From the NCBI GenBank assembly GCA_963422375.2, contig OY729428.2, positions 1,536,001 through 1,600,000 of the forward strand: 64,000 bases of DNA. The letters are read 5' to 3'. The position numbers and the translations under genes are program-made. Shown here piece by piece: positions 922-45,725 of the stretch; within the stretch, counting starts at the first letter, position 1; every line of letters begins with the position of its first letter. The stretch comes from Bryobacterales bacterium (GTDB taxonomy: Bacteria; Acidobacteriota; Terriglobia; Bryobacterales; UBA6623). The notes below the pieces were generated by a model. The model had not been told where the DNA came from, ran no database searches, and worked only from the letters and a program-made list of their open reading frames with translations.

Positions 922-983
922 GGCCGTGCCCAGTCGCATTGTACCGGCAATAGAATTCGAGTAGCGGTTTCGTCCAACGCGAG

Positions 984-20558: not shown

Positions 20559-20678
20559 GCCTGCAGATCCACGGATACTATAGCTCACGGGTCGTGCCCT
20601 ACGCGCCGATTGCCCTCCGTCCGTTGGCGAGCGGCCGGGCGTGACGTTCGCGGTTGGACTTGCGTGTACAATTCCCAC

Positions 20679-22325: not shown

Positions 22326-22326
22326 C

Positions 22327-23064
22327 TTGGCGCGGACTTTCGTGATCTGGGCTGTGCTGGCCCCGGCCGCGGCGCTCGCGCAGCTGGACCTGCGCTTGGG
22401 CGCGGAAGTGTACGCTCGGACCTGCGCCAACCAGTACTGCCACGGGGCCGCCGGCGAGCAAGGTGCGGCGGCGGCCCTCGCCGGACGGAAGCTCCGCTAC
22501 TCCTTCGTGGCTCGGTCCGTCATTTACGGCATCGCCAATACGAACATGCCGCCTTGGAAGGAGGCGCTGCCGCCGGCCGAGCTCGATGCCGTCATCGAGT
22601 ACGTCATGAGCCTGCAAAGCGCGCCGTCGTCGGCAGGTCCAGCTCCCGCGGCGGCTCCGGAGGCGCGCCGGTTGCGCCATCCCGGCCGCGCGCTGTTCTT
22701 CGATCCCGGTAGGGTGGGCTCCTGCGGGTCATGCCACGAGTTCCAAGGCCTCGGAACGGCGGTCGCCCCGCTGATCGAGGCCGTCCCCGGGGGCGTCGCC
22801 GGTCTTCGCGCCGCGAGGCCGGCTCGGGTCGACACCGTCGCCCTCGAGTCGGGTGCCACCTTCCCGGGCGTGAAGGTCGACGGCAAGGGCGGGCAGGCCC
22901 GGTACTACGACCTCCGTCCGCGGCTCCCCGTGCTCAGAACGCTCCGCAGAGACCGCGTGCCGGCGCTCGAGGGCAGTTCCTGGACGCACGCGGCCGCCCT
23001 GGACCGATACAGCCTGGCCGAGCAAGAGACGATCATCGAGTATTTGCGGCTGGCTCTGCGGTGA
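22327..23064 (+). CDS. Dihaem c-type cytochrome, paralog of 984-1805
   Basis: CANQYCH...NTNMPPW; GRALFF..CGSCH; starts 1 nt after the dehydrogenase stop. Confidence 0.82.
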   Translation: MARTFVIWAVLAPAAALAQLDLRLGAEVYARTCANQYCHGAAGEQGAAAALAGRKLRYSFVARSVIYGIANTNMPPWKEALPPAELDAVIEYVMSLQSAPSSAGPAPAAAPEARRLRHPGRALFFDPGRVGSCGSCHEFQGLGTAVAPLIEAVPGGVAGLRAARPARVDTVALESGATFPGVKVDGKGGQARYYDLRPRLPVLRTLRRDRVPALEGSSWTHAAALDRYSLAEQETIIEYLRLALR

Positions 23065-23339
23065 CGAGCCAGCTTTCGTTCTTGCGGAGACGGGCCGCTT
23101 GCGTGCGTCTCGATAGCGGGGCTGGTAATCGCGCGAATCTGCCGCTTCGGTAACCAACGGAAACCTGTCGAGATCTACAGCCTATGGCGGATCGCAGGGT
23201 CGCTCCGATCTGTCGGCGAATCCTGTCGGAGCCGGCGGTAATTCACCGCGTCCCGCCTTGTCTGGAGGGCTGATTCCGACCGCGCGTTCCCTCGCCTGCG
23301 AGTCGATACATTGGGTTACAGCGGAAGGGAACAGCGCGG

Positions 23340-26300
23340 ATGAACTCGATCCAGCCCAATCCAATCGCGATGGCGTTTGTTGCAGCTGCCGTGGGGGTCG
23401 CTTGCCTCGCGGCCTGCGGCGGAGGCGGCGCTGCACCCGCGACGGCACAGGCCCCCGCCCCGCCGCCGTTCCGGCCGGAGGTCGCGGAAGTCGACTTGGG
23501 GAGCAACGGCGGGAGGGTCCGGCTGGCGACGGTCGAGGGCGGCACTTGGGCCCGCGACGGCAGGCCGTTCCCGAGCGGCTCGACCGTGAGGGGCGACAAC
23601 GGCTTGGACTACAGGCTCACGCTAGCGGACGGAAGATGGACGGCCGCGTTCGTAGCACCTGACCCGGTGACAGTCCGGCTGGGGGCCAGCAGCGATGCGG
23701 TGTCGATTGAGACGCGGGAGGACGGGACCTTTCGCATGGACGGTCGGGCCGTGGCGAGCGGCGATGTGTGGAGGGCCCCCAACGGCAACGAATACCGATT
23801 CGTGCGCGCGTCTGACGGCGATTGGTCCGCGGAATTCGTGTCTGCCGAGCCCTTGGTTGTGACGCTTGGGTCGAGCGGGGAACGGGCGACGCTGACAACG
23901 CTTGAAGGAGGGCGGTTCGAATACGGCGGCAGGCGCATTGGAAGCGGGGATACGTTCGCGATCCCGAGCGGACGCCGCTACAGGCTCCAGCGTTCGTCGG
24001 CGGGGCAATGGAGTGCCGTCTTCGTACCGCCCGCCCCTGTGTCCGTCCGGCTGGGCGACAGCAACGTCACGGTGTCGATCGAGACGCGGGAGAACGGCAC
24101 CTTCGGCATAGGCGACCAAGCCGTGGCGAGCGGCGCTTTGTGGAAGGCTCCCAACGGCAGCCAGTACCGCCTCGTGCACGCGCCCGGTCGTGGTTGGTCC
24201 GCGGAATTCGTGTCCGCCGGGACCTTGGTCGTGGTACTCGGAGCAAGCGAACGAAAAGCGACGCTGACACGCCTTGAAGCCGGTGTGTTCGAGTACAACG
24301 GCGAGCGGTTCCGCAGCGGCGAGACGTTCGAGGGCGAGAACGGACACCGCTACAGGCTCCTGCTCTCGCCGACCGGTGTATGGACGGCCGTCTACGCAGC
24401 CCCCGACCCGATCACGGTTAGCTTGGGATCCACGAGCGAAACGGTTTCCATCCAAGAGACTGAGAGCGGCTTTACACTGGGCGACGTTCCGATCGCGAGC
24501 GGGGACATCCGCAAGGTCCCGAACGGAGACCAATACCGGTTCCTGCAAGATCTGGAGGGGCGCTGGAGCGCGGAATTCGTCGCTCCGCCCCAGCAGCGGG
24601 TTCGGCTCGGCTCGAGCTCGCTCGCAGTCCTCGTCGAGAGCTTGGAGGGCGGGCGATTCCGCGTGGAAGGCGGTGCTTTCGAGAGCGGCCAAGTATGGGA
24701 GGCGTCGAATGGCGACTCCTACCGATTGGACCGGCGCACGGACGGCGTTTGGATCGCCACCTTCGTCCCCGGGCCGCCGGTGACGGTCACGTTGGGGTCA
24801 CGCGGCGGCACGCTGACGCTCACGCGGGCCGAGGGCGGGACCTACGAGCGCAATTCCCGGGCATTCGCGGGCGGCACCGTGACGGGAAACGGCTTCGACT
24901 ACCGTCTCACGCTGCGGAACGGCGAGTGGCACGTCGAGCCACTGGGGCGGTCTGCCACCGTCGCTCTGCCAGGCGGTGGTTCGATCACCGTCATGGAGCA
25001 GGAGGACGGCAGCTACCAGCTGGACGGGAATCCGATCACGAGCGGCCACATCGCCAAGACGGAGGGGCAGTCCTACCAACTCACTCTGTCCGGGGGGCGG
25101 TGGAATGCCGCGGTGTGGAATCCGGCACCGCTGACACCGGCGGATGGCGCCGACGACATCCAAGCGACGCTTGTGGGCGCGAGAGCCAATCTGATCGATT
25201 CGGAAGGCAGGTCCGCCAGGGCTGGAGCGAGGCTGCGCGTGAATGGTCGCGAGTTCTCGCTGCAAAGGCTGTTCGAAGACGGGGAGGACGAGCGGGCCGG
25301 ATCCTTCGTGACGCGCGTCCGGGATGGGGTCGAGCTTGCCCGGACCCGCATTGGCACGCTGCTTGGCCTGAACGACGACGGCTCCTTGGACAGCGCTATC
25401 GAGACCAAGTGGGACGAAATCGCCAGCCAGCTGGATGAGATTTTTGTCGGCGAGGGACACGCCATCCTAGGAGGCCGGGACACGCCGAAGCGGCGCGCGC
25501 AGATCGACAACGGCGAAGTCACCAGCGTTCTCGCGAAAGTCGTAGCCGCGCTAGAAAGCGAAAGCAGCTTTGACGACGCCCTCAGCGGTGGCATCTTCGG
25601 CGATACCACCTTGGCGAGCTCCAGCTCCACCGACGTTGCCGAGCTGTTCGGAACGCAGTCCGTGCTCGAGAGAATCGCCTTCGGTCACGGGGAGAACACC
25701 CGGTACGGTGCCTACTCCAAGCGCGCCCGAGCCACTCCAGGCGCGGTCTTGGAGTATGCCTCTGGCGTCGACGGCCTCGGGGCCTTCGCCTACAGCCCGC
25801 TAGAGAGATCCAGGTCCCTCGACCTCCCTCGTCGTGGACGGGCCGCATACGTAGGCGAGACCTACGCCGCAGCGCGCAACGGCGACCAAGAGTTGTTCGT
25901 AGGAGACATCGAGTTGGAAGCGAACTTCAGTAGCGGCCGGGTGGCCGGCATCGTCACGAATCTCGACGAGATATCGCACGGCAATCCGTGGAAGTACGCC
26001 AGCGGCGACGTGGCGACGATTCGCTTGCCCGGCGCGAGCATCGCGCGCGATGACGGATCGTTCGCAGCCGCGGACGACGCGACCGCCTCGGTCGAGTACG
26101 CGACGGCAGTCGGTGCGCCGCGCCCCCGCTCCGTTGCCTCGGGCTTGTCGGGGCAGTTTCTCAGCACGGAGGCCGAGCACGGGAGCAACGTTATCGGCAC
26201 TTGGTCCCTGAAGGGCGACGGCGAGGCGATACTGACCGGCGGCTTCGGCGCGGATCTCGACCCGGCGCAACAGCCGGTGGCTCCGCAGCCTCCGGCGACG

Positions 26301-27434
26301 TCGGACGGCGGCGAGAGCTCGAGGACATTCCTCACCGCCCGGCCGGACGACGACGGCGAGATCGAGATAGAGGCCCTTGACGAGGACGGAGAAACGATCA
26401 AGCTGCCGGCAGCAAGCCTGTTTCAAGACAACGAATTCAGCCGTTCGGGACCGCGGATATTCGCGAGCGCTCGAAGCGCGCTCGAAGCGCATCTCTCTCG
26501 CCTGAGGCTCTACAGGGAGCTGGCCCTCGACACCGAGTCACTCCGGACAAGTCTTTGGACCGCGGCGAACGCGGAATTGGAATCGATTTTCGGCGCCGGA
26601 ACGACGGCCTTGGGTTCCGAATACCCATCTGGCCGTGAAATGCCTGCTCGCGATGTCGCGGCGGTCAGGAAGTTGGAGGACGCTGTGGATGCGTTGGGCA
26701 GTGCAAGCGACTTCGAATTCGCGGTGAGCCGCCCGGACCTGTTCGCCACCGAGCCGCCGAGTTCTGCTGACTTTGACGCGATATACGCCGCTCGCGAGTT
26801 CGAGCTGGAAGTGGTTTACTGGTCCACGGACTTCGCTAGGTACGGCGCGTGGGCCCAGACAGCCCCCTCCAAGGCAATCAGCCCGGCGGAGAAATCCCTT
26901 CAGGCTACGGGTGTGTTCGCCTACAGCCCGCTCGCACAGTCCGTGCATCGCTCGGGGGACTCTGCTTTCGCGACGGGGTTCGCTGCGCGCTACGAGGGGT
27001 CGACATGGGCAGTCGAGACGGTAAAGGAGAATGGCACGCCGGCTAGCCCCTATTTCCGATTCTACGATGCCACCTTCATCATGACCGTTCGATGGTCCGG
27101 AGGTAGTGCGGACGCTGCCGTCTCCGCCGTTGTGGAGGGATTGAGCGAATCGAAGGAGTACGATCCGTACAGTTACCAAGGGCAGGGCGTAGACCAGATC
27201 ATCTTCAGCGGCCTATCGACGAGCGTCACTTCTGGCAGAATCGAATTGGACGACTCGCGTCACAGCGTTCGGGTTCGGCACTTGGACTTTGGGATAGCGG
27301 ACCGCACCATCGACTCAGACACCTCGATGAGGGGCAAGTTCGTTGGCACTAGCTGGGACGGTCCCCGGGGCGTAATCGGTGACTGGGAAGCGGGCGACCT
27401 CAAGGGCGCCTTCGGTGCAGACTTCAAGCCTTGA
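23340..27434 (+). CDS. Large lipoprotein with nine ~62-aa N-terminal repeats and two TbpB-like lobes
   Basis: Lipobox LAAC followed by GGGG and a Pro-rich linker; repeats VxLGxS..E.G.F..G....SG.....NG..YRL....G.WSA.FV; lobes with FAYSPL ending in GGFGA and GAFGA. Confidence 0.75.
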   Translation: MNSIQPNPIAMAFVAAAVGVACLAACGGGGAAPATAQAPAPPPFRPEVAEVDLGSNGGRVRLATVEGGTWARDGRPFPSGSTVRGDNGLDYRLTLADGRWTAAFVAPDPVTVRLGASSDAVSIETREDGTFRMDGRAVASGDVWRAPNGNEYRFVRASDGDWSAEFVSAEPLVVTLGSSGERATLTTLEGGRFEYGGRRIGSGDTFAIPSGRRYRLQRSSAGQWSAVFVPPAPVSVRLGDSNVTVSIETRENGTFGIGDQAVASGALWKAPNGSQYRLVHAPGRGWSAEFVSAGTLVVVLGASERKATLTRLEAGVFEYNGERFRSGETFEGENGHRYRLLLSPTGVWTAVYAAPDPITVSLGSTSETVSIQETESGFTLGDVPIASGDIRKVPNGDQYRFLQDLEGRWSAEFVAPPQQRVRLGSSSLAVLVESLEGGRFRVEGGAFESGQVWEASNGDSYRLDRRTDGVWIATFVPGPPVTVTLGSRGGTLTLTRAEGGTYERNSRAFAGGTVTGNGFDYRLTLRNGEWHVEPLGRSATVALPGGGSITVMEQEDGSYQLDGNPITSGHIAKTEGQSYQLTLSGGRWNAAVWNPAPLTPADGADDIQATLVGARANLIDSEGRSARAGARLRVNGREFSLQRLFEDGEDERAGSFVTRVRDGVELARTRIGTLLGLNDDGSLDSAIETKWDEIASQLDEIFVGEGHAILGGRDTPKRRAQIDNGEVTSVLAKVVAALESESSFDDALSGGIFGDTTLASSSSTDVAELFGTQSVLERIAFGHGENTRYGAYSKRARATPGAVLEYASGVDGLGAFAYSPLERSRSLDLPRRGRAAYVGETYAAARNGDQELFVGDIELEANFSSGRVAGIVTNLDEISHGNPWKYASGDVATIRLPGASIARDDGSFAAADDATASVEYATAVGAPRPRSVASGLSGQFLSTEAEHGSNVIGTWSLKGDGEAILTGGFGADLDPAQQPVAPQPPATSDGGESSRTFLTARPDDDGEIEIEALDEDGETIKLPAASLFQDNEFSRSGPRIFASARSALEAHLSRLRLYRELALDTESLRTSLWTAANAELESIFGAGTTALGSEYPSGREMPARDVAAVRKLEDAVDALGSASDFEFAVSRPDLFATEPPSSADFDAIYAAREFELEVVYWSTDFARYGAWAQTAPSKAISPAEKSLQATGVFAYSPLAQSVHRSGDSAFATGFAARYEGSTWAVETVKENGTPASPYFRFYDATFIMTVRWSGGSADAAVSAVVEGLSESKEYDPYSYQGQGVDQIIFSGLSTSVTSGRIELDDSRHSVRVRHLDFGIADRTIDSDTSMRGKFVGTSWDGPRGVIGDWEAGDLKGAFGADFKP

Positions 27435-28794: not shown

Positions 28795-30975
28795 TCAAGG
28801 TCTGTCGCGGGTGACCGCGAGAGCGTGAAGGCGCAAGATCTGATCCTCGTCAAGCACCTCGCGGAAGGACGGCATTCCGTTCCCGCCGCGCACCACTAGG
28901 CGTACGAACTGGCCCGCGGATAGACCGGTCAGGAAGATGTTGGGACCGCTGCCCCCGCCGTCTCTGTGGCACCCGATGCAATGCGACCGGTACAGAGCGT
29001 TGGCCCCGAGCAGCGCCTCCTCGTCCTCGAGGTACGGATTGGCTCTCTCGTCAGCGCCTCCTGCGCTGGCCGCGCTGCTCGAGATCGGCTGGGGCGGGCC
29101 TGCCGTGCGAACGGGGGCGCTGCCTTCCGTCGCTTTGAATCCGTAGCCGGGCAAGACACGTCCTCCGAGCGTGTGACCGGGCTCTCCCACCCGGGGAAGT
29201 CCCCCTTCGATCGTCGTCAAGCTCGTGCCCAGTGGCACCCGCGCCGGTCCTCCTCCGTCAAGAGCGAAGACCCAGATGTTCCCCGCCTTCGGCTCGGCGT
29301 AGTAGAAGGTCATGTCGCCGCCTATTCCTCCGGACGGGACTGCGACGTACTGCGTGCCGTCTAGCTCGTAGGTGATCGGGCTGCCGATGATTCCCGAGCC
29401 GGTCTGGAATTGCCACAGCAAGGTGCCGGTGCGGGCGTCGAGGGCCATGAAGTAGCCGCGCATGTCGCCGGTGAATACAAGTCCGCTTGACGTGGCCACC
29501 GAACCGGCCCAGAATGGGGCGGGGCTCGTCAATCTCCATAGAACCTCGCGATTCAATACGTCATAGGCGATGAAGTTGCCCGGGTTCTCGCTCGTCACGT
29601 ACTGCTGGTAATCGGCGCCGAGGTACCACTCGCCGTCGCTCGGAGGAGCGAACGAGTCCTCCTCCCAGAACTTGTAGCCCATCGCCCATTGGTTCGACAT
29701 GAAGTAGAGCGTCCGCAGTTGCGGGTTGTAGGCGAGCGGCTGCCAGTCGATCGCCCCTTCAAGGCTCGGGATGATCGGGCCGACCTCGGGTCCACCGGAT
29801 TCAGCCACCATCTCGGGATTCACGATCGGGCGGCCTGTTTCCGGATCGAGCCCCTTGGCCCAAGTGATGCCCGGCACGATCGGGTCGCCGTAAAGGAACT
29901 GCCCGTCGGTGCGGTCGAGCGCGTAGAAATATCCGTTCTTGTCGTGGTGGAAGAGCGCCTTGACCGGGCCGTGCTCGCCGAGATCGAGGTCTGCGAGCAC
30001 CGGGGTGCTGACCGCGTCGTAGTCCCAGCAGTCCCACGGCGTGTACTGGAAGCCCCATTCGATCCGGCCTGAATCGGCGTCGATGGCGATCGTGGCTGCA
30101 GTCCACTTGTTGTCGCCCTTGCGGACTTGGCAGTTCCAAGGAGCCGCGTTGCCTGTATTCCAATAGACGAGTTCGATGTCGGGATCGTAGACGCCGGTTG
30201 TCCATGTAGGCCCGCCTCCGTGCTTCCACGTCTCGCCCGGCCAGGTCTCGTTCCCGGGTTCACCGGGCCCGGGAATCGTGTAGGCTGTCCAGCGCAGCTC
30301 CCCGGTACCGCTGTCGAACGCCTTGACGAACCCCCGGATGCCGAACTCTCCGCCGGCGACTCCGGTGAGTACCATGTCTTTCACGACCAGCGGGGCTCCG
30401 GTGATGCTATATCCCTGACGCCAGTCGACGACTTGGGTTTCCCAGACGACTTCTCCCGAGGACTTGTCGAGCGCGACCAATCGGGCGTCCATCGTGCCAA
30501 CGTAAACGAGTTCACCCGACAGGGCCACGCCGCGGTTGATCGACCCGCAGCAATAGACCCGTTCGGTCTCGACCCGGAGCTGCGGATCGTAGCTCCACTC
30601 CTTCGCTCCCGTCCGTGCGTCGATCGCGAACACCCGGGAGCCGTCAGCCGACACGTACAAAACGCCGTCATGAATGAGCGGAGTCGCCTCGAGGCCGCGA
30701 TTCTCCCCGCCCGTGGCGAAGACCCACGCCGGATGCAGGCGGCTGATGTTGCCCGGGTTGATTTGATCTAGGTCTACGTAGCGGTGGGCGTAGTAGTCCC
30801 GGCCGTACATCAGCCAGTCAGATGTGTTGGTCGCTGCCGCCTCGAGATCTTCGTTGGTGACCGGCTGAGCAACGACATGCGGGACCAGCAATGCGAGCGA
30901 CACGAGAAGATTCCGAATGACTGCGGTGTGGGTTGGCGAAATCATTGTATGTGCTGCCGGATTCCATTCTTGCAA
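28795..30975 (-). CDS. PQQ alcohol dehydrogenase (methanol/ethanol family) with C-terminal cytochrome c
   Basis: Vicinal YCCGSINRG, GGEFG, TGNAAPWN, WDYDAV, C-terminal CIGCH...GNGMP. Confidence 0.9.
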   Translation of the reverse strand: MQEWNPAAHTMISPTHTAVIRNLLVSLALLVPHVVAQPVTNEDLEAAATNTSDWLMYGRDYYAHRYVDLDQINPGNISRLHPAWVFATGGENRGLEATPLIHDGVLYVSADGSRVFAIDARTGAKEWSYDPQLRVETERVYCCGSINRGVALSGELVYVGTMDARLVALDKSSGEVVWETQVVDWRQGYSITGAPLVVKDMVLTGVAGGEFGIRGFVKAFDSGTGELRWTAYTIPGPGEPGNETWPGETWKHGGGPTWTTGVYDPDIELVYWNTGNAAPWNCQVRKGDNKWTAATIAIDADSGRIEWGFQYTPWDCWDYDAVSTPVLADLDLGEHGPVKALFHHDKNGYFYALDRTDGQFLYGDPIVPGITWAKGLDPETGRPIVNPEMVAESGGPEVGPIIPSLEGAIDWQPLAYNPQLRTLYFMSNQWAMGYKFWEEDSFAPPSDGEWYLGADYQQYVTSENPGNFIAYDVLNREVLWRLTSPAPFWAGSVATSSGLVFTGDMRGYFMALDARTGTLLWQFQTGSGIIGSPITYELDGTQYVAVPSGGIGGDMTFYYAEPKAGNIWVFALDGGGPARVPLGTSLTTIEGGLPRVGEPGHTLGGRVLPGYGFKATEGSAPVRTAGPPQPISSSAASAGGADERANPYLEDEEALLGANALYRSHCIGCHRDGGGSGPNIFLTGLSAGQFVRLVVRGGNGMPSFREVLDEDQILRLHALAVTRDRP

Positions 30976-31477: not shown

Positions 31478-32611
31478 TCAGGGCTGGACAGGTCGCTCGG
31501 CTTCTTCGTTCTTGAGAAGGTCTTTCTGTTCGGGATCTGTGTCCGTTCCTAGCTCGCCGGTTTGCACGGCCTCTACGGCTGGCGGGTCTACCCGCCCGGC
31601 TTCATCACGCGAACCACTGAATGCCGCAGATGCGAGCAATGCCACGATTATGGCAAAGAGTGCGAGCACAACGCCAAACATCCAGCGTGTGCTCCTGACT
31701 TCTGAACGCACGGCCCCCATCGTCGCAAGCATCTCCTTTTGGTAGAGCTTCCACTCCTTATCCTGCGCATCAAACCTTTCTCGAGTCGCCTTTTCCAAGC
31801 TCTCGAACCCGGCTCGTGTGGATTGCTCCAACTTGACCTGCGCCTCGCGGAGCCCCTGCATCTCCCGCTCCTGCGCTTCGAATCTGGCCTGCGTTACCGC
31901 TTCCAGCTTTTCGAACTTGGCCTGCGTCTTTTCTTCCAGCCTTTCGAACCCATCTTGAGTCGCCTTCTCCTGCGCCTCGAACCTGGCTTGCGTCTTCTCT
32001 TCCAGCCTATCGAACCTATCTTGAGTCGCCTTCTCCTGCGCCTCGAACCTGGCTTGCGTCTTCTCTTCCAGCGCCTCGAACCTATCTTCGGTCGCCTTCT
32101 CCTGCGTCTCGAACCTAGCCCGCGTCTTCTCTTCCAGCGCTTCGAACCCAGCTTGGGTGGATTGCTCCAACTTGACCTGCGCCTCGCGAAGCCCCCGCAT
32201 CTCCTGCCCTTGGGCCTCGAATTTAGCTTCCGTCACCCTCTCTTGGGATCTGAATCCGGCGCTCGTCTCCGACCGCCAAGCTTCGAGCAAGCTCCTGAGC
32301 TCTCTGTACTGAGAGTCTTGGCGCAGGCTCAGCGCATTGATCAATCCACGGGTCTCCGACTGCCACCCTTCCAGTAACGTGGTCAGATTCCTGTACTGGT
32401 CGGCCTGCTCTTGGAGTCTGTCTTCGACGGCAGAGATCCGGCCAATCAGCCGACCTTCAAGCTTGCTGGTCTTGTTGTCGACAATTCTCCCGAAGACCGC
32501 TTCCAAGTCCCGCTCCTCGTGAGGTTCTTGGTCCGCGGGAGAGTCGTCCACGAGATATGGCTGCTGCAGTGCGACTCTCTCGTCATCGGGAGGCTCGAGC
32601 ATCTCTTTCAC
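31478..32611 (-). CDS. Coiled-coil protein with 11-aa tandem repeats and a C-terminal TM anchor
   Basis: Alternating EEKTQARFEAQ / EKATQDRFxxL units; TM segment WMFGVVLALFAIIVALLASAAF. Confidence 0.75.
   Translation of the reverse strand: MKEMLEPPDDERVALQQPYLVDDSPADQEPHEERDLEAVFGRIVDNKTSKLEGRLIGRISAVEDRLQEQADQYRNLTTLLEGWQSETRGLINALSLRQDSQYRELRSLLEAWRSETSAGFRSQERVTEAKFEAQGQEMRGLREAQVKLEQSTQAGFEALEEKTRARFETQEKATEDRFEALEEKTQARFEAQEKATQDRFDRLEEKTQARFEAQEKATQDGFERLEEKTQAKFEKLEAVTQARFEAQEREMQGLREAQVKLEQSTRAGFESLEKATRERFDAQDKEWKLYQKEMLATMGAVRSEVRSTRWMFGVVLALFAIIVALLASAAFSGSRDEAGRVDPPAVEAVQTGELGTDTDPEQKDLLKNEEAERPVQP
31770..32230. repeat. Coding tandem repeat with 33/66-bp period
   Basis: Recurrent tcgaacctggcttgcgtcttctcttccagc and gtcgccttctcctgcg units; boundaries approximate. 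Confidence 0.85.
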
Positions 32612-32935: not shown

Positions 32936-33979
32936 CCTGATTACCCACAAGACTCAGCCAAGGTTAGGAGGCGGAAAGGCCTGGGCGGGGTGCGCACGGA
33001 GGCGTGGAGCAGGCGGGGGACCAGCGCCTCCAGGTGGTAGCGGCGGTTGAAGCGGTAGCGGAACTCGGCGAGGTAGCGCGGCAGGTGCTTGCCGTCGAGC
33101 GCATGGCAGGTTCCCGCCAGGGACTGCTTGACGTTCGCCGGCATCGTGTTGACCCGGAAGAAGCGGGAATCCCCGCAGCTCCGCTGCCCGCCTCCGGTGA
33201 CGGTCGGCACGTGCTCGCAGCCGGCGCCGGCCACGCCCCGGAAGCAGGCCGGGCCGTCGGAATGCACCTCCGTGCCGGGCTGCAAGTGCCGCCCGGCCCA
33301 CGCTGCCAGCGTCTTCTTGCGCAAGCCCGCCACGCTGCTCATGCGCATCCTTGCCGGCTGGCCGTCGGCGCTGACCTGCACGGCGGCGACGAACGGCGTC
33401 TTGCCCGCCGCGCCGCGACCGCGCTTGCCGCCGGTCCGCTCCCCGCCCCAGCAGGCGTCGTCCACCTGCACGATGCCGCCCGGCGGCACGCGCTCGTCGC
33501 GCTCCTTCATCACTTGCAAGAGCTTGTGCTTCACCTTCCAGGCCGTGTTCCGGCTGACCCCCAGCTGCCGCGCCAGTTCCAGCGACGAAACGCCGTGCTG
33601 GCCCTGCGTCAGCAGGTGGAGCGCCAGGAACCAGACGGTCAGCGGCAGCTGGGTGGCGGCGAAGATCGTGCCGGCGACGAGGGAGGTCTGGCGGTGGCAG
33701 GCATGACACTGCCAGAGCTTGCGGGAGCGGATGCGGCAGTGCCGTCAGGAGCCGCACTCCGGGCAGCGGAAGCCGTTCGTCCGCCGTCCGGCCAGCGGGC
33801 GTTGAAGACGGCGTGCTTGCATTGCCCCTCGCTGCCGTAGCGCTGCAGGAACTTGCCCAGGCTGAGTCCCTTCTGGAATTGCACGCGATTGCGTTTCATC
33901 TGCTAGCCCCTTTCCTGTCAGAGATTTCCGACCTCCTCCAGTATAGCATATCCTCGGCTGACGTTCGTTGGTAATCAGG
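32936..33979 (-). mobile_element. IS1595-family element copy A (transposase frameshifted)
   Basis: Terminal IR CCTGATTACC/GGTAATCAGG; 8-bp TSD TAGTGATT (32928-32935, 33980-33987); transposase 33899-32941 with CPECG, VQVDDA, HSDG, RYLAEF; 11-bp insertion at 33772-33782. Confidence 0.95.
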
Positions 33980-35852: not shown

Positions 35853-36914
35853 TCATGCGACGTGCGCGCCTTGGGCCTCGACATAGGCGGCATACAGGCT
35901 CTGGCTTGCCGTCATGAACAGACGGTTTCTCTTGGCGCCGCCGAAGCAGACGTTGGAGCAGATTTCCGGGAGCCTGATCAAGCCGATCCGAGCGCCGTCC
36001 GGGGCGAAGACATGCACGCCGTCGTAGCCGTCCCCTACCCATCCGGCCGAGGACCAGATGTTGCCGTCGGTGTCGCACCGAATGCCGTCGGCTTGGCCTG
36101 CCTGTTCGAATCCGTCCATGCGCATGGACGCGAAGCTCCGGCCCTTGCGAAGAGTGCCGCCGCCTTCCACGTCCCAGACCTTGATCTGGCGCTCGGCCTC
36201 CGGGTAGTGCGAGGCGCCGGTGTCGGCCACGTACAGCAGCTTGTAGTCGGGCGAGAAGCATAGACCATTGGGCTTGTAGATGTCGTCTGCGACGAGATCC
36301 ATCTTGCCGGTGGCTCCGTCAATGCGGTAGACGGCCTCCTTGACTTCCAGAGGCCCCTTGTTGCCCTCGTAGTGCATCAGGCTACCGTAGCCCGGGTCGG
36401 TGAACCAGATGTTCCCCTCGGGGTCGACAACGACGTCGTTCGGGGCGTTCAGGGGCTTGCCCTGCCACCGGTCTGCCAGCACGGTCACCGTTCCGTCGTG
36501 CTCGTAGCGCACCACGCGGCGATTGCCGTGCTCGCAGGAGAGCTGCCGGCCCGACCAGTCGAACGTGTTGCCGTTCGAGTTACCGGAGGGATTCCGGAAG
36601 ACGCTGACGTGTCCGTCCTCGTCCAGCCAGCGCATCTGCACGTTGTTCGGGATGTCGGAATAGACCAGATACCGTCCGACAGCGTTCCAAGCGGGGCCCT
36701 CCGCCCAGAGGGTGCCGACATGCAGCCTCTGGATGGGCGTGTTTCCGAGCTTGTACTTGTCGAAGCGCTGGTCCAGCGAAACGATGTCGGGATCGGGATA
36801 CCGCGTCGGGCTGGCGTTGGTCCAGTCGCGCTGCGCCAGCGCTTGGACGGAAGCCGCAGCCACGCCCGCGACCGAAGTCACGAAAGTGCGACGATTGATG
36901 GGATGCGATGCCAT
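35853..36914 (-). CDS. SMP-30/gluconolactonase family protein (Tat signal)
   Basis: NRRTFV signal, WAEGPAW, LNAPNDVV, PNGLCFSPD, ADGIRCD. Confidence 0.92.
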   Translation of the reverse strand: MASHPINRRTFVTSVAGVAAASVQALAQRDWTNASPTRYPDPDIVSLDQRFDKYKLGNTPIQRLHVGTLWAEGPAWNAVGRYLVYSDIPNNVQMRWLDEDGHVSVFRNPSGNSNGNTFDWSGRQLSCEHGNRRVVRYEHDGTVTVLADRWQGKPLNAPNDVVVDPEGNIWFTDPGYGSLMHYEGNKGPLEVKEAVYRIDGATGKMDLVADDIYKPNGLCFSPDYKLLYVADTGASHYPEAERQIKVWDVEGGGTLRKGRSFASMRMDGFEQAGQADGIRCDTDGNIWSSAGWVGDGYDGVHVFAPDGARIGLIRLPEICSNVCFGGAKRNRLFMTASQSLYAAYVEAQGAHVA

Positions 36915-37558
36915 TGCAATGCAACTGTACCAGATCGAACGTCTTGACGGCGAAGTACGCAAACCCGGTTGGTACAAGCGGGCGGGATCCAGCATGCCGG
37001 ACAGGCCAGGCTAGCCACGCCTTCGATGCCGGCCCCGGACAAACCAGCCGAGCACATCTCAGGGGACGGAGAAAGCCGCGATCGGAATCAGCCCGGCGTC
37101 GACTGGACCAGACCTCCGACGCCCGTGGTGTTCAACGCATTCCAAACCTCGTCACCGTACAGCATACGAATCAAATCGGCTGCGCATGTTGCACCAAGGG
37201 AGACCCTGCTGGTCCGACCGCAAGAATGACTTGCCAACTCTAGGCGAACCCTCGGCGGACGCATTTCGTCTTGGAGAAGGAAGATTCCGAATCGGGTTTA
37301 CCAAGGACCGACATTGATTGGCCGGATAACCGGTGGCACGACGGGACGACTAATTACGAAATATCGAGTTTCACACAATTCTTGAGAGCCTTAAAGAAGC
37401 CGGAATGTCACTTGAATCTGCGCTGCGACGCGAACTGCTCGACCATCCTTCATGCCTGGTGCGAACTTCCATTGCTTGATGGCTTCAATTGCCTTTTCGT
37501 CTAGACCGTGGCCCAAGGTGCGTAGTACACGGATGTTGTGAGCCTTTCCGTCTTCCCA

Positions 37559-38972
37559 CGCCCATGCAACTCCGAAGTGCGACACGCGCCGAGCCACAAG
37601 ATGGCAGGGAGGGGAGAGGGGGGGCAGCGAGCGGTGGTGTGGCGGCAGTAGGCTGGTAGGTGCTGGAAGGAGCAGGGAGGCGGATGCGGAAGAGCTACAC
37701 GCACGTGAGGCAGGAGGAGCGCTGCCGGAGCGAGACGCTGCGGGCGGCGGGCTGGGGAGCGGACAGGATCGCCGGGCAGCCGGGCCGCAAGCGGGCCACG
37801 ATCTACCGGGAAGTGGGCCGCAACGGCCGACCGGCGGAGGGCGAGCGCGCGGCGAGCTACAGCTTGGGGAGCGCGCAGGAGCGCGCGGAGCGGCGGCGGA
37901 GCGGCGGCGGCGCGCGGCGTCGTGCCGGCCGCGCCAGCTGACGTCGGCGCTGCGGACGCGGAGCGAGGACTGCCTGCGGCAGGACTGGAGCCCGGAGCAG
38001 GTCGCGGCGCGGCTGCAGCGGGAAGGGGCGCTGGAGATCAGCCCTGAACGGATCTACCAGCTGGTGCGCGCGGAGCGGCGGCAGGGGGGCCGGCTGTACC
38101 GGCACCCGAGGCAGGGCGGCCGCAAGCGCGTGCGGCGGGTCGGCCGGACGGCGGGCCGCGGCCTGATCCCGGGGCGCGCGGACATCGCGGAGCGCCCGGC
38201 GGAGGCGCGAGCGCAGGCGCGCGTCGGAGAGCGGGAGGTCGACACCGTGATCGGCGGGCAGCGCCGCGGGGCGCTGGTGACGCTGGTGGACCGGTTCTCC
38301 AAGTACCTGCTAGTGCAGCCGGTGAGCCGGCGCACGGCGCAGCTGGTCGGGGCGGCGATGACGGCCATGCTCGCAGGGAGCGGGGCCGTGACGCACACGC
38401 TCACGGCCGACAACGGCAAGGAGTTCGCGGCAAGGAGTTCGCGGCAAGGAGTTCGCGGCAAGGAGTTCGCGGGGCACCGGGAGGCACCGGGAGGTGGCGC
38501 AGCGGCTGGGGGCGGGCTTCTACTTCGCGCGGCCCTGCCACTCCTGGGAGCGCGGGCTGAACGAGCCTGCCAACGGGCTGCCGCGGCAGTACTGCCCGCA
38601 GGGGACGGACCTGCGGCGGGTGGACCCGGCCCGGGTGCGGGAGGCGCGGGACCGCCTGAACCGGCGTCCGCGGAAGGTGCCGGGCGGGCGCACGCCGGAG
38701 GAAGTCTTCCCGGCGGAGCGGGAGCGGGTGCCGCGGGGCTGAGGCAGGGCTGGCAGCCCGCCGCGGGGACAGGGGCGCGGGGGAGCTGCGCCCGGACAGG
38801 CCCGGAGGGTCCCCGTTCCGGAAACGGGGCACGCATGCCCGCCTGCCCGGGACGCGGCCCCCGCTTCGGCCCGGCAGCGGCTTGTCCGGCGCCGCTGGAT
38901 CTGCTACTGTGGTCCTAGTATCCCAGCCCACCGCCCCTTACCCGCGTGTCGCACTTCGGAGTTGAATGGGCG
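37559..38972 (+). mobile_element. IS30-family element (transposase multiply frameshifted)
   Basis: 30-bp IR CGCCCAT(G/T)CAACTCCGAAGTGCGACACGCG with 1 mismatch; 3-bp TSD CCA; HTH TIYREVGRN, EVDTVIG, DNGKEF, SWERGLNE, LNRRPRK. Confidence 0.93.
38415..38492. repeat. Tandem repeats (GGCAAGGAGTTCGC)x4 and (GGCACCGGGA)x2 inside the IS30 transposase
   Basis: Read directly from the sequence. Confidence 0.95.
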
Positions 38973-39220
38973 CCAAATTTCAACTGCCAGCATCACCGTG
39001 CCCTGAATCTTGGCTTTGCGTGCTTGTTCGGAATACTCTGGTTCCACTTTGAACAGGAGGCGGGGACTAGTGACAGATCCGCCAATGGTATGCCCATTAG
39101 GAGGGTCTGTTACAGAATTCGTCCCGCTATCCGGTGTTTCTATAGTACCGTCATCCGGCAGGATCACCAATGTCACAAGTACCTTCGGACCGCCGTCTCG
39201 ACGAGCCACGTCATTCGAAA

Positions 39221-40735
39221 GGGAATTATATATCTGAGTGCCGAGGCAACCGATTTTGCAAATTATCAGTCCATAAATTAATTTCATATTTCTTCCGGAG
39301 ATCTGTTGACAGTTGGTGGATTATTTTGGTAGAATAGTTCCAATATATGAGGTCGTCTATGAAGCAGAAAGGTCCCGGGAAGTGGTTTCGTAAAGGCATC
39401 ACTATGATTGAAGTGATCGCCATGTTCCGCGATGACGAATCCGCGGAAAAGTGGTTCGCCTCCATGCGCTGGCCGGACGGTCCGGTATGCCCCCACTGCC
39501 GCGGCTCCAGCGTGCAGTCCGGCACGGCCCACCCTTCGATGCCGTACCGTTGCCGCGGCTGCGGCAAGCGCTTTTCGGTGCGCACCGGCAGCGTGATGGC
39601 CGACACCAAGCTCGGCTACCGCACCTGGGCCGTCGCCCTGTTCCTGCCGACCACCGGCATCAAGGGTGTCTCGAGCATGAAGCTGCACCGCGACCTAGGC
39701 ATCAGCCGGAAGTCGGCCTGGCACCTGGCGCACCGCATCCGCGCGTGCTGGGAGCGGGATCAGGGCCTGTTCGCCGGCCCGGTGGAGGTGGACGAGACCT
39801 ACGTCGGCGGCAAGGAGCGCAACAAGCACGAGAGCAAGAAGGCCCGCGCCGGGCGCGGGCCCGTCGGCAAGACGCCCGTGGCGGGGGCGCGGGACCGCGC
39901 CACGAACGCAGTGGCCGCGCGGCCGCTGCCGGGCACCGCCAAGGGCGACCTGCAGGGCTTCGTGCGCGGCCGGGTCGCGCCGGGGGCGCAGGTCCGCTCC
40001 GACGAGGCGGCGGCCTGCGCCGGCATGGAGGAGTTCTCGCACGAAGCCGTCAGGCACTCCGGCGGCGAGTACGTGCGCGGGGCGGCGCATACGAACGGCA
40101 TCGAGTCGTTTTGGTCCCTGTTCAAGCGCGGCCTGTACGGCACCTATCACCGGATGAGCGTCCGTCATCTCGGCCGCTACCTGACGGAGTTCGCGGGACG
40201 GTGCAACGACCGCGACTGCGACACGGCGGAACGGATGCGGCGCATGGCGCGGGGCCTGGTCGGCCGGACGCTGACCTGCCGGCAGCTGACCGGCAAGGCC
40301 GCGGTCGCGGCCCGAGCGGCGCCCTCCGAGCTGAGCGCCGCAGCCCGCTGCCGACGCACTCTTCACGCTCGATGCGCTTCACGCTCGGTGCGCGGGTCGC
40401 GCCGGCTCTGGAATCCCCCGGCGCGACCCGCGTCCGGCCCGGCCCGTCCATGCAGGCCGTCGAGCGCCGGGGATCCGCTGTCTTCGGCCCTCGGAGGGCA
40501 CGCAATCAGCTTGCAAGGGGCGCCCTCCACCGCCAACCGGATTCCACCAGGCATGCGAGAGGGCCTCTCTAATCCGTGCCTCGTCCATTCCGCTGGCAGG
40601 CTCGATTCAGATACGATCCCACTTTTCCGTGCCTACCGCGGCCGCATTCGAATGACCCCAGCCAGACGCCGACCTCCCTGCTCAGAGCAGTTCTCGTCGG
40701 ACATGGCGTTGTCGGCACTCAGATATATAATTCCC
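39221..40735 (+). mobile_element. IS1595-family element (second type) with ~400 bp of extra 3' sequence
   Basis: 24-bp perfect IR GGGAATTATATATCTGAGTGCCGA; 8-bp TSD ATTCGAAA; transposase from 39347 with CPHC..CRGC, VEVDETYVGG, HTNGIESFW; probable stop TGA changed to CGA at 40313. Confidence 0.95.
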
Positions 40736-41039
40736 ATTCGAAAGACCTTGGGAAAACGGAATGACAGTCAATTCACCGCTGTATGTGCCGGGAACAAGCC
40801 CAATACCACTAGCGCTAACTCCTACTGTCGAAACTCCGTCTCCCGCAATGGATTGACCTTGTGGATAGGCACGAAGCCACCCTTGGTTGGAATCAAGGTA
40901 ATAATTTGTCGATCCCTGACCCTCGTGAACTAGAGTGACTTGCTGTTGAGGTGCTTCACGCCCCAACAAGGAGACGAAGGTCAACGCTCTGGATATCACT
41001 TGGGTCACTCTTGAGGGTGGGCTAGAATCCATTCGGATA

Positions 41040-42071
41040 CCTGATTACCAACGAACGTCAGCCGAGGATATGCTATACTGAAGGAGGTCGGAAATCTCTG
41101 ATAGGAAAGGGGATAGCAGATGAAAAGCAATCGCGTGCAATTCCAGCAGGGACTCAGCCTGGGCAAGTTCCTGCAGCGCTACGGCAGCGAGGGGCCATGC
41201 GAGCACGCCGTCTTCAAGGCCCGCTGGCCGGACGGCTTCCGCTGCCCGGAGTGCGGCTCCCGGCGGCACTGCCGCATCCGCTCCCGCAAGCTCTGGCAGT
41301 GCCATGCCTGCCACCGCCGGACCTCCCTCGTCGCCGGCACGATCTTGGCCGCCACCAAGCTGCCGCTGACCGTCCGGTTCCTGGCGCTTCACCTGCTGAC
41401 GCAGGGCAAGCACGGCGTTTCGTCGCTGGAACTGGCGCGGCAGCCGGGGGTCAGCCGGAACACGGCCTGGAAGATGAAGCACAAGCTCTTGCAAGTGATG
41501 AAGGAGCGCGACGAGCGCCTGCCGCTGGGCGGCATCGTGCAGGTGGACGACGCTTACTGGGGCGGGGAGCGGACCGGCGGCAAGCGCGGTCGCGGCGCGG
41601 CGGGCAAGACGCCGTTCGTGGCCGCCGTGCAGGTCACCGCCGCCGGCCAGCCGGCAAGGATGCGCCTGAGCAGCGTGGCGGGCTTGCGCAAGAAGACGCT
41701 GGCAGCGTGGGCCGGGCGGCACTTGCAGCCCGGCACGGAGGTGCATTCCGACGGCTTGGCCTGCTTCCGGGGCGTGGCCGACGCCGGCTGCGAGCACGTG
41801 CCGGCCGTCACCGGAGGCGGGCAGCGGAGCTGCGGGGATTCCCGCTTCGTCCGGGTCAGCACGATGCTGGCGAACGTCAAGCAGTCCCTGGCGGGAACCT
41901 GCCATGCGCTCGACGGCAAGCACCTGCCGCGCTACCTCGCCGAGTTCCGCTACCGCTTCAACCGCCGCTACGATCCGGAGGCGCTGGTCCCCCGCCTGCT
42001 CCACGCCTCCGTGCGCACCCCGCCCAGGCCTTACCGCCTCCTAACCTTGGCGGAGTCTTGGGGTAATCAGG
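41040..42071 (+). mobile_element. IS1595-family element copy B (transposase 41120-42088, nearly intact)
   Basis: Same IR as copy A; 8-bp TSD TTCGGATA (41032-41039, 42072-42079); 1 bp shorter near the 3' end, so the ORF reads past the IR stop. Confidence 0.95.
41071..41079 (+). promoter_or_regulatory. Extended -10 promoter of the IS1595 transposase
   Basis: TGcTATACT about 40 nt upstream of ATG 41120; also present in copy A. Confidence 0.55.
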
Positions 42072-44435
42072 TTCGGATAAGGGCTTGAATCGTGCCGTGA
42101 ATCGGTGCGTATGGTGTATGGACGACAAGGCCTATGTTATAAGATCCAGGCCTGAGCGGAGGGGTCGACCGTTCAGTGATTGAGATCGACTCACTTGCAC
42201 CGCGTGTGGTCGCCTCATGATCGGCGTAGAATATAGGAGTGTTACGGTCTTCGGCATAGTCCCACGAAACTGGAATGTCTCGTCGTAGATAAAGATCGAC
42301 CTCTGCCGAGGAGTTGTTTTCGGAACGGAATGTAACCGTCAGCTCGTTCGCACCAGGTGGTACATGGACACGATAGCTTCCCTCTTGAAAGAATGTCTCA
42401 AACGTGAAGTTCGTACTTGGGAGGAGCACGCGCTCGCGTATGCCTGGACGCAGCTCCATTGCACGCGAGAACACCGCCTCAACATGCGTCGGGCCCTCAA
42501 TTGCAACCTGCTTTCTTGATAGGATTCCACTCAAATCACCTTCCAATCGTACGAAGCTCCATCCCGAGTTGGGTCGTGTCTTTATGGAGACGACGTCGCC
42601 TGCAGCATAGAACCCGTCTCCCGACGGCGGGTCATACTTCGCCGGAATCGACCGGTCTGACGCTCGTGATGACCTTGTGCTCTGTCAATGCTGTGAGTGT
42701 GATCTCGCCACCCGAAGCTGGCACGTGAATTCTGTGCGAAATCTCACCTCCATCGCTCCAGCTCTGAAAGCGATGACGCGTTCCGTGAGTGTGTCCCGTC
42801 TGTAGTTCCGGAACACTCAATTCAAGCCCGTTTCGGTAGTGCTGAGGCTCCAAGGCAATCGGCGTGTAGTTCCACCAATCGTTAATATTAACGCGAGTAG
42901 GATCTATGTTCGATCTGATCAAGAACTGCGGACCACGGCTGAATACAGCTCTGTATTCTGCGGAATGATGCAGGATAAATGATGCTGGATTTGCTGACAG
43001 ACCTTGGCGCGAAAAACCCCAAGATCCACCACTCCATGATCGAAATGTGTAGTACTGGGGTTGGTTGGGTCTACCCGAAATCTGAACCGGCGTTCGCAAT
43101 GTGTAGAAACCGTCCGGCGACTCTGGGGCTACTCTTACAGTACCGACATCTTGGGGCTGTGAAGACGCTTCGATTCTATGCTGGACAATGAAGTTCGCCT
43201 CAATCCAAGTGTTACTTCCATCGAACGATATGACTTTCCTAGAGGAAGAGCCGCCGAAGTTCCATCGGCCGAAAAGAGAGCGACTACTGCCGTTCGTCTG
43301 TACTACAGGAGCTTCCAGTACATGCTCGCTACCAACTGACCAGCGGAATTTCTGTGGCGTGGTTACGCGGCGACCATCGACAACAATATCCAACCCAGGG
43401 GGATTTGTCGACAAGGTAGTTACTAGTGGAACTCTTCCATAGAGGCGAGCAACACCGTCGACATCACCGGCAGACAGGTATCCTTCACCGGCAGACAGGG
43501 ATACGCTTCCGACAAGCATCCCCGGAGGGATGGTCTCCAAGACTGGCTTGCCATTGCGGGAGAACAAGTAGGGACTGTAATGCATGGTTGAGGAAAAATC
43601 GTATGGTCCTGTTGCAGGGTGGACTGTAGGGAGAACCGAAAGTCTGCCTGCAGGGTCAAGGTTGTTCTCCAAGACCATAACATACGCTTCGCGGTCTTCG
43701 CGCTCATGCTCGTGCCAAAGACCTACAGCGTGGCCGATCTCATGCACTGCAGGATCGACTCCGCACCTTGCCATGAGGTTGATGACTTGCTCACCCCCGA
43801 TCCTTCCGACGTGCGAGTTACACGTTGAGTTGTGGTGTCGGAATCGAACATAATCGTCTTCGACTGTCCGTTCGATTAGCGTGATTGCTGTTCTTGTGTT
43901 CCACTCTGAAATTGCGTCTAGGATTCTTTGCGTATCGGGTACGTCTGAGTCAATAATATACGGGACAACGCCGTTTGGCCACAAGGCATCAGAGTCCGTG
44001 ACTGAAACGTTCCGAGGCGGGATCCAGTTACGTTGCTTGGGCGGAACGGCTCTGATTCCTGCCCTCTGGACTTCTTCGGCCGTCCCAAGGATCATATCGC
44101 CGTGGACCGCCATCCCGTCGACAACGCGATAGGGCAGAGTCCGTCCACGGAAGACAGTGACGCCGTATTCTTTCTCTCCGGGGTTCTGTGAGGCAATGCT
44201 GCCGTGATCGAGTTGTGATTCGAACGGTGATGCAATTCTCTGCTGACCGAATCCACTGTCAATACACAATGCAGCCGCTAGGGCGGGCACGACGCCCACG
44301 TAAAGCCAACTTCGAAACCGGCGAATGACTGGCCCGTAACTTAGCTTGCAGTGCAAGCCAATCTCTATTATATATCATCGCAACTCGTAGCCTCGATGCG
44401 CGATTCCTGTCGCCGCAGGCTCCACACTTGAGTCG

Positions 44436-45725
44436 CTAAAGCAAGCGGAAGCTCACTTGAATCTGTGCCGCGACACGGACTGGCTTGCCATCCTTCTTTC
44501 CGGGCGAGAACTTCCATTGCTTGACTGCTTCGACCGCCTTCTCGTCCAAGCCAAGTCCCAGGCTGCGCAGCACGCGGATGTTGTGCGCTACTCCGTCCTC
44601 CCACACTTCCACGGCAAGCATAACCGTCCCTTGGTACTTCGCCTTGCGCGCCTCTTCAGAGTATTCCGGCTCTACCTTGTAGAGCAGGCGCGGACTGGTC
44701 ACGCCGCCGCCGATGCGGAACACGCCGCCGCCGATGCCACCGCCGGAGCCGGGTCCGACGCCCGAACCCCTCCCGGACCCGACACCCGTGCCGCGTCCGG
44801 ACCCGATGCCGCCGCCCGTTCCCGGACCGGCCGACGGCGGTCCGTCCGCCCCGAACGGATCGCCGAATACCGAGAGATCCACATCCGGCAAGCTGATCTC
44901 CGGGGGCACGCGAACCGTGGGCTCGACGGCGAGCTTCGGGTTCTCGTTCCGGATGACTGGCGTGGGAGGGGCCAGCTGCGGCTCCAAGGAGAATCGCGGC
45001 AGCTTGCCGCGGCTCGCCGGAAGCGGGGAGTTGGCCCCGCCCCCGCCTCCGCCCCCGCTGTCCCGCGGATCCGGCCGTGCGGGCGCGCGCAGCTGGGCAA
45101 GGTAGGGCGATACGTCCACGGGGATGATCAGCGTGACCGTGCCCCGGTTCAACTCGCCGAGGTCGCGGTCCGGGAGTCCGAACATCAGCAGGACGAAGAG
45201 CAAGTGAGCCGCCAAGGTAACCGCCATGCCTTGCCTACGGTGGCTCAAGTCCCCCCAGATCTCCTTGACCCGGACCGGCTTCGAGCTCAGCTTGAGCGGC
45301 GGGGCTTTCCGGAACTCCCGATCGAGCCTGTAGCTTTCGTGGATGCCGGACCACCACGGCATCGCCAAGGTCCCGAGCCCGAGCGGAGGCAGGCTCGGCT
45401 CGCCGGGCAGAGGCGGCCGGTACGAAGGCAGGGGAGGAAGCCCCTTGGCCTCGCTTAGCGTGCGGAGCGTTTCGGTTATGCCAAGCCACCAAGGCCTGCT
45501 CAGCGAATAGACGTTGGGATCCCTGAAGTCCGTTTCGCCTGGCTCGGCCGGGCGATACGTCGGAAGCGGGCCGAACTTCGGCGGCTGAAGGATCTCTCTG
45601 GCCGAGTCGAGGCAAAGCGACCACCACGGCTCGTGGATGGAGTCGATCACAAGCGGGCCCAGACCCCGGTGTTGCGCTAGTCTCTTTTCGACGGCTGCCG
45701 GCTGGTTGGAGTCGGACATGTCCAC
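44436..45725 (-). CDS. tonB: Energy transducer TonB family protein
   Basis: TM segment with AHLL, Gly/Pro-rich linker, C-terminal KVEPEYSEEARKAKYQGTV...GLDEKAVEAVKQWKF. Confidence 0.9.
   Translation of the reverse strand: MDMSDSNQPAAVEKRLAQHRGLGPLVIDSIHEPWWSLCLDSAREILQPPKFGPLPTYRPAEPGETDFRDPNVYSLSRPWWLGITETLRTLSEAKGLPPLPSYRPPLPGEPSLPPLGLGTLAMPWWSGIHESYRLDREFRKAPPLKLSSKPVRVKEIWGDLSHRRQGMAVTLAAHLLFVLLMFGLPDRDLGELNRGTVTLIIPVDVSPYLAQLRAPARPDPRDSGGGGGGGANSPLPASRGKLPRFSLEPQLAPPTPVIRNENPKLAVEPTVRVPPEISLPDVDLSVFGDPFGADGPPSAGPGTGGGIGSGRGTGVGSGRGSGVGPGSGGGIGGGVFRIGGGVTSPRLLYKVEPEYSEEARKAKYQGTVMLAVEVWEDGVAHNIRVLRSLGLGLDEKAVEAVKQWKFSPGKKDGKPVRVAAQIQVSFRLL

Follow-up and report, generated by a model that had tools for sequence, protein, structure and literature searches.

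A gene for an exported astacin protease that carries a TonB_C domain at its C-terminus lies broken in the 64,000-nucleotide stretch of Bryobacterales bacterium DNA considered here (assembly GCA_963422375.2, contig OY729428.2, positions 1,536,001 to 1,600,000; hereafter the window). The same architecture, in which an astacin domain is followed by beta-repeat, PPC-like, BACON-like, and TonB_C domains, exists intact in relatives of this bacterium, where it is rare. The window copy is a real, fixed pseudogene, and this strain no longer produces the full-length protein. The architecture combines known parts in a rare form that the original prediction did not recognize, and no description of it was found in literature searches from which subscription journals were largely absent (supplementary domain tables may list it). 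The same searches found no literature linking astacins with TonB and none on the family TIGR03437, and the main text of a 2023 astacin review makes no mention of 'TonB' (PMC9848320).

An interrupted gene and its domains

The gene occupies the minus strand from position 44356 to 37391 (window positions) as five host pieces separated by three insertion sequence (IS) elements and one frameshift. The prediction, made from the letters alone, that three such elements interrupt a single gene is confirmed, and the positions, target duplications, and junction peptides that it gave are correct. Each element has inverted ends and a perfect target duplication (8, 8, and 3 bases). All three lie on the plus strand: an IS1595-family element at 41040..42071 (duplication TTCGGATA, 10-nt identical ends), a second member of that family at 39221..40735 (duplication ATTCGAAA, 24-nt identical ends), and an IS30-like element with a frameshifted transposase at 37559..38972 (duplication CCA, a 30-nt inverted repeat that is 97% complementary). 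Pfam recognizes the IS1595 DDE domain in the first two transposases and HTH_38 with rve in the third, for which the label IS30 is a reading of that domain pair and of the element ends rather than a library name. The GC content of the host pieces (0.50-0.54) differs from that of the elements (0.67-0.76), and the genome holds 89, 87, and 18 matches, respectively, over 80% of element length. With the elements excised, one frame is open through codons 1-574 (stop at 575) and a second through codons 558-994 (stop at 995); apart from the predicted frameshift near 42634, the spliced 994-codon gene has no further internal stop, between domains or elsewhere. The odds that all three IS junctions stay in frame by chance are 1 in 27, the stop-free run not counted, and the spliced pieces are collinear with the intact relatives.

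The breaks are not a product of sequencing error, which is ruled out by contigs from a public run (X1) with the same junctions and frameshift. The X1 contig records match positions 36800-37587, 38946-39243, 40712-41067, and 42028-43194 with no other letters and no gaps, extend into the elements by 23-44 bases at each of the six IS junctions, and leave the frameshift unchanged (record 6, spanning 42028-43194, depth 337). It is because all of these breaks recur unchanged that the window copy is regarded as a real pseudogene, although X1 may derive from the same sample as the assembly. A further run (X6) contains the 39220 junction at low depth. Empty-site alleles across the IS junctions, for which a search had been proposed, were absent from the joints listed (15 of 57) in these contig data, and contigs drop rare variants.

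The first piece (42632..44356) is a 574-codon open reading frame comprising a signal-like N-terminus, propeptide, astacin domain, and beta repeats; it begins at a TTG, which makes the true start uncertain, and ends at the frameshift (42632..42635) that separates it from the second piece. Its signal-peptide-like stretch (44246..44356) contains the sole 19-residue hydrophobic window of at least 1.5 across the five pieces, and cleavage is presumed from the A-x-A/Q ends seen in relatives. The propeptide, with putative boundaries at 44009..44245, carries a GDM-type switch motif at residues 85-88 and precedes the catalytic domain (43433..44008; PF01400, E 2e-31, 109.5 bits against a cut-off of 22.5). 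The second piece (42072..42633) holds an InlB-B-like repeat (PF18998) and a PPC-like beta sandwich, the third (40736..41039) a BACON-like Ig domain, the fourth (38973..39220) the end of the BACON-like domain, a linker, and the first third of TonB_C, and the fifth (37391..37558) the remainder of TonB_C and the stop codon (PF03544, E 1e-13). Along the pieces, the Pfam order is Astacin, Flg_new_2 (8e-6), a weak BACON_2 (0.0015), and TonB_C in two parts, with PF03544 and TIGR01352 both above cut-off. BACON_2 is below cut-off in the window copy (it is above cut-off in the relatives G019 and G007), and the PPC-like assignment comes solely from an ESM Atlas lead (0.93).

The astacin signature was compared with 237 relatives (the best 120 of 376 and the best 120 of 200, minus three from this genome and one duplicate). 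The zinc motif HEXXHXXGXXH (residues 205-215, positions 43744-43712) is followed by the family Glu and by EXXRXDRD through residue 223, a pattern found in 230 relatives but ending in Glu instead of Asp in the window copy. The Met-turn STMHY (residues 256-260), with its Tyr ligand, is kept in 227 relatives, and Cys179 and Cys198 form the only cysteine pair of the catalytic domain, as in the five intact fusions. Two lesions had been overlooked: the propeptide motif H-x-G-D-M, which 194 relatives carry (the 43 others have no match), is one residue short in the window, a form shared by none of the 194, and residue 360 is Ser where Tyr or Phe stands in 200 of 207 matching relatives. The window copy departs from 6 of 129 highly conserved columns (4-8 in intact fusions; family median 2), which marks the decay as recent. 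Since the catalytic domain is preserved in the 574-codon piece, a truncated product may be made, though one lacking TonB_C; the protein collection entry for the locus is the astacin part alone (493 aa, PF01400 only). The same genome also has a 253-bp island (C2:1677094-1677346), some 97 kb distant and set in unrelated high-GC DNA, that is 98.4% identical to positions 43165-43417 within the first beta repeat. It encodes Phe at the position of Ser360 and thus looks like a copy predating that change.

The protein shares with other M12A astacins (crayfish astacin and BMP1; the bacterial myroilysin and flavastacin) the signal, the propeptide, HEXXHXXGXXH with EXXRXDR, and the Met-turn Tyr (PMC9848320). 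It differs in having one Cys pair where two or three disulfides are described, a criterion drawn mainly from animal enzymes (PMC9848320), and in the InlB-B-like, PPC-like, BACON-like, and TonB_C domains that follow at its C-terminus. The aspartate-switch motif of the propeptide is FXGDI in animals (PMC9848320), and the 194 relatives noted above carry the H-x-G-D-M variant. The best NCBIfam model for the propeptide and catalytic part is NF045530 (LegP; E 7e-51), which covers only residues 70-306 of the 994-codon gene and scores 173 bits, below its cut-off of 300 (132-240 bits in other scanned family members); it is best taken as a match to bacterial astacins in general.

Intact fusions and a swappable C-terminus

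Uninterrupted astacin-TonB_C proteins, anticipated by the original prediction, were found in five relatives: G008 (970-aa frame), G019 (992-aa frame), and G043 (1014-aa frame), and P0089 and P0121, which come from records outside the congener survey described next. All five retain the zinc motif, Met-turn, and propeptide motif. The G019 protein as modeled by AlphaFold (974 aa, 60-row alignment; mean predicted local distance difference test score 86.9, predicted template modeling (pTM) score 0.79) consists, in order, of a propeptide, an astacin domain with TM-scores of 0.79-0.83 over solved domains, a series of all-beta domains, and a folded TonB_C that is set off by a disordered linker of 12 residues. 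Sequence searches and Foldseek fold searches of this model return BMP1/astacin as the best match, and solved TonB domains as well. Besides the window, broken TonB-tailed copies occur in G007 (an IS30-like insertion) and in G023 and a tandem twin in G019 (tail frameshifts).

A search of all 31 genomes of the genus with the fourth piece (which holds just the first third of TonB_C), in which 20 match regions were read, places the fusion in 5 of 30 congeners (G008, G019, G043, G007, and G023). Astacin domains as such are present in 28 of 30 congeners and in 60 of 151 genomes of a sample of the order, and source names place the family in Bryobacterales. No fusion was seen among 20 astacin frames in 19 loci outside the genus, chosen mostly as the longer frames. 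The genome itself contains two intact astacin-family paralogues (C2:1416387-1419536 and C2:26761-29430; 1049- and 889-aa frames), one of which stops after BACON and the other of which has a ~160-aa unannotated tail.

The last position of these proteins is variable. Among the 237 relatives, it is occupied by TonB_C in 5 and by Soli_cterm in 38; 105 terminate no more than 70 residues past the final match to a BACON-end profile (the two frameshifted copies among them), and 89 have other tails or are truncated. Many of proteins P0211-P0302 share a recurring tail of ~400 aa or more that is rich in beta-type motifs and has no precomputed Pfam family. In trees of the astacin core (a first tree of 129 rows, 6 of 135 having been dropped as short, and a quick second tree of 36 rows picked after the first), the nine TonB-tailed rows occupy five places, and a single clade is rejected by the approximately unbiased (AU) test (p-AU 5e-6). 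A single fusion origin followed by vertical descent is thus ruled out by the quick core tree and the AU test. P0121 nests among Soli_cterm proteins, and the linkers before TonB_C are unrelated between fusions. The simplest reading of these trees is repeated gain or exchange of the tail; repeated loss is possible, as the tree is unrooted. The cores of G008, G019, and P0089 share one clade with support of 100 and long branches, and all three keep the tail.

In the genus, TonB_C is likewise the last domain of kinases, of a caspase-like/FGE protein, and of TrbI-like, thioredoxin-like, and TPR-like proteins (11 TonB_C matches occur in this genome). Because this domain has so many unrelated partners, the astacin fusion is one case of a wider habit. 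Examples from this genome, with partner domains assigned by eye, include two Ser/Thr-kinase-like frames that each end in two TonB_C domains (C2:2798732-2800816 and C2:3507006-3509939) and a TPR-like protein (C1:811270-812343). An exported-looking family of ~320-350 aa also ends in TonB_C (L059:8031-9077, L062:6168-7118, L063:5555-6505, and L064:5011-6051), its N-terminal domain lacking a Pfam or NCBIfam match; in G044, a member directly follows an astacin-Soli_cterm gene. A trypsin-like protease in G043 (L050:4882-6855) has an N-terminal leader that by eye resembles that of the fusion P0121, which suggests that the front end is shuffled as well.

Origin and surroundings of the window copy

A core tonB-like gene (44436..45725, minus strand; 429 aa, one strong hydrophobic segment, TonB_C) lies immediately upstream of the fusion, and a gluconolactonase-like gene (35853..36920, minus strand) lies downstream and bounds the far side of the insertion. 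The tonB-like gene was found in all 30 congeners examined and is linked to the gluconolactonase gene in 28, with an astacin between the two only in G043, on the opposite strand. Apart from the window, 3 of 30 congeners have an additional TonB_C gene at the site just downstream of tonB, possibly a favored landing site: an unknown domain with TonB_C in G041 (L059:8031-9077), an inverted 3' tonB duplicate in G007 (L087:6030-6686), and the astacin fusion in G043 (L050:10870-13911). From the low GC content at third codon positions (GC3) of the fusion gene (0.54, against a window median of 0.81), we infer that it is an accessory, low-GC arrival.

The tail is not a recent local duplication of, or crossover with, the adjacent tonB, which is ruled out by saturated synonymous sites and by the lack of any near-identical patch (63-83% identity in 30-nt windows); the flanks, too, match no relative's locus. 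The tail and the adjacent TonB are 84% identical in amino acids, with proportions of nonsynonymous and synonymous differences (pN and pS) of 0.10 and 0.82, values that point to a tail under purifying selection rather than a fresh local copy. Two considerations weigh against reading this as selection within the fusion: the low pN/pS could predate the fusion, and the GC3 gap between tail (0.51) and adjacent tonB (0.74) inflates pS. By eye, the window tail has the 15 invariant residues of alignment A3. A TonB_C tree places none of the eight fused tails in the core tonB group (support 80/82). This tree, from which 9 pattern-failing sequences were omitted, is too short to resolve tail origins.

Several further features of the window were noted. 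A scan of 36900-37600 for promoters and terminators gave no signal above shuffled sequence. Within the IS30-like transposase, a 14-nt unit occurs in three identical tandem copies (38414-38469), other genomic copies of this element are only 86-95% identical to it, and a further IS1595 copy with a fragmented transposase, close to the 41040-42071 element, lies at 32941-33900. Pyrroloquinoline quinone (PQQ) dehydrogenase and cytochrome c gene pairs occur on opposite strands (268-4249 and 19887-23061), with a third, fused unit at 28795-30975; beside such genes is a 1386-aa frame without a Pfam match at 1e-5 (23274-27431). Positions 31478-32611 encode a 377-aa protein with 11-residue coiled-coil-like repeats, a C-terminal hydrophobic segment, and no Pfam match above cut-off.

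Possible roles of the TonB_C tail

The reading favored here, held tentatively and at somewhat less than even confidence, is that the intact form is a soluble periplasmic astacin zymogen that docks on the TonB boxes of transporters without pulling on them, both the binding and the substrate being putative. The protein would be exported by Sec and its signal cleaved; as in other astacins, a propeptide Asp would keep the zymogen latent until removed at activation. Motifs and the structural model show the zinc endopeptidase domain on a run of beta-sandwich spacers, and domain conservation suggests that the beta3 strand of the C-terminal TonB_C would pair with TonB boxes of TonB-dependent transporters in the same cell. 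The protease would thereby be held beneath outer-membrane pores, most plausibly cutting imported peptides or proteins. The beta3 strand of TonB_C is described as pairing with the TonB box, and soluble fragments as binding as well (PMC11658791). The genome contains 72 matches to the transporter barrel family.

While TonB_C is shared with energy-transducing TonB, the N-terminus of the fusions is only signal-like (hydrophobic windows of 1.67-1.78, versus 2.17 for the adjacent TonB helix), the typical Pro-rich spacer is missing, and a hydrophobicity scan finds no internal membrane segment in the window copy, G008, G019, G043, or P0089. Since there is no membrane anchor, the fusion could not couple to ExbBD and would tether rather than energize. 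A functional parallel is the Fus system of Pectobacterium, which likewise brings together a TonB-like domain (FusB), a periplasmic protease (the M16 enzyme FusC), and one transporter (FusA), but as separate operon-encoded proteins with a dedicated transporter, an energized FusB, and another protease family (PMC7593965); the protease proposed here would be FusC-like but self-docking, with no dedicated transporter. Peptidase_M56-TonB_C proteins (B. thetaiotaomicron TonB1 and TonB10; X. campestris) also join a metallopeptidase to a C-terminal TonB_C, and TonB proteins with such extra domains are described as functionally uncharacterized (PMC10350073). M56, however, is the BlaR1-type membrane sensor family, unlike the soluble astacin zymogen, and PF05569 (Peptidase_M56) is absent from the window pieces and the intact fusions.

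Several observations weigh against docking. Of the nine copies with a TonB tail, four are broken (those of the window, G007, and G023, and the G019 tandem twin), which makes the gene dispensable. Within the stretches covered, transporter genes occur at only two of five relatives' loci (G008 and G023; 43 of 97 candidate frames scanned), about the expectation at one transporter per 85 kb, and no dedicated transporter was found among 47 window frames scanned, the nearest barrel match being just outside the window. Most family members end in surface-exposed-looking domains or have no tail, suggesting that extracellular action may be the norm for the family. In P0121, a hydrophobic stretch lies at the BACON end and 78 residues follow TonB_C; G007 also extends beyond this domain. 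A complex prediction that paired the tail of G008 with the first 202 aa of a transporter from that genome scored 0.00, without folded controls, and speaks neither for nor against docking.

A broader idea, judged unlikely, is that TonB_C has been co-opted in these Bryobacterales as a portable address tag, added independently several times to soluble exported enzymes such as astacins, which it parks on or routes through some of the ~70 transporters, and interchangeable with Soli_cterm in the same slot. The leading rival to docking, itself unlikely, is that the fusions are by-products of domain shuffling, in which an abundant TonB_C is appended to many genes and the astacin versions are short-lived and gain little from the tail. 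The variety of TonB_C partners in the genus, the polyphyletic cores with unrelated linkers, the four broken copies, and the presence of the tail in just 5 of 237 relatives suit this explanation. It is opposed by pairwise comparisons of the fused tails, which keep their fold residues at 64-76% identity while synonymous sites are near saturation, by the GC3 of the tail, which is like that of the protease part and unlike that of tonB, and by the long-branched clade shared by G008, G019, and P0089, all of which keep the tail, a pattern that indicates long retention.

A regulator or decoy, in which the tail competes with real TonB while the protease clips the N-terminal extension or plug of transporters or destroys incoming TonB-dependent toxins, is improbable. 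Its anatomy would be identical to that of the docking protease. Soluble TonB fragments block transport, and most transporters inspected have an N-terminal extension before a TonB-box-like strand. Colicins are described as having TonB boxes (PMC11658791), and patchy spread with frequent loss suits a conflict gene, but no conflict genes other than transposases adjoin the loci.

Still less probable is export, in which the tail would engage an Oar-like transporter through which the protease is secreted. In Myxococcus xanthus, Oar with ExbBD/TonB secretes the protease PopC (PMC6434023); in this genome, many transporter matches lie in frames of more than 1000 aa, and in other proteins the slot holds Soli_cterm (38 of 237) or a different beta-rich tail. 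However, the energy for Oar comes from a separate, required Ton system, and the abstract of that account makes no mention of TonB_C on the cargo (PMC6434023); an anchorless TonB_C on cargo cannot pull, and a multidomain protein of ~1000 aa would presumably be a very large cargo. Equally improbable is a generic envelope anchor binding peptidoglycan or another periplasmic partner instead of transporters: TonB_C binds peptidoglycan and the slot holds likely anchoring domains in other family members, but the beta3 strand is conserved as in core TonB. Peptidoglycan binding is, moreover, attributed to ExbD (PMC11658791).

The case demonstrates that bursts of IS elements can hide whole architectures from gene callers. 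Close relatives with the TonB_C tail and those without it or with other tails constitute a natural paired experiment on a TonB_C that does not energize transport. If the docking reading is true, the transporters of these bacteria would double as scaffolds for periplasmic processing.

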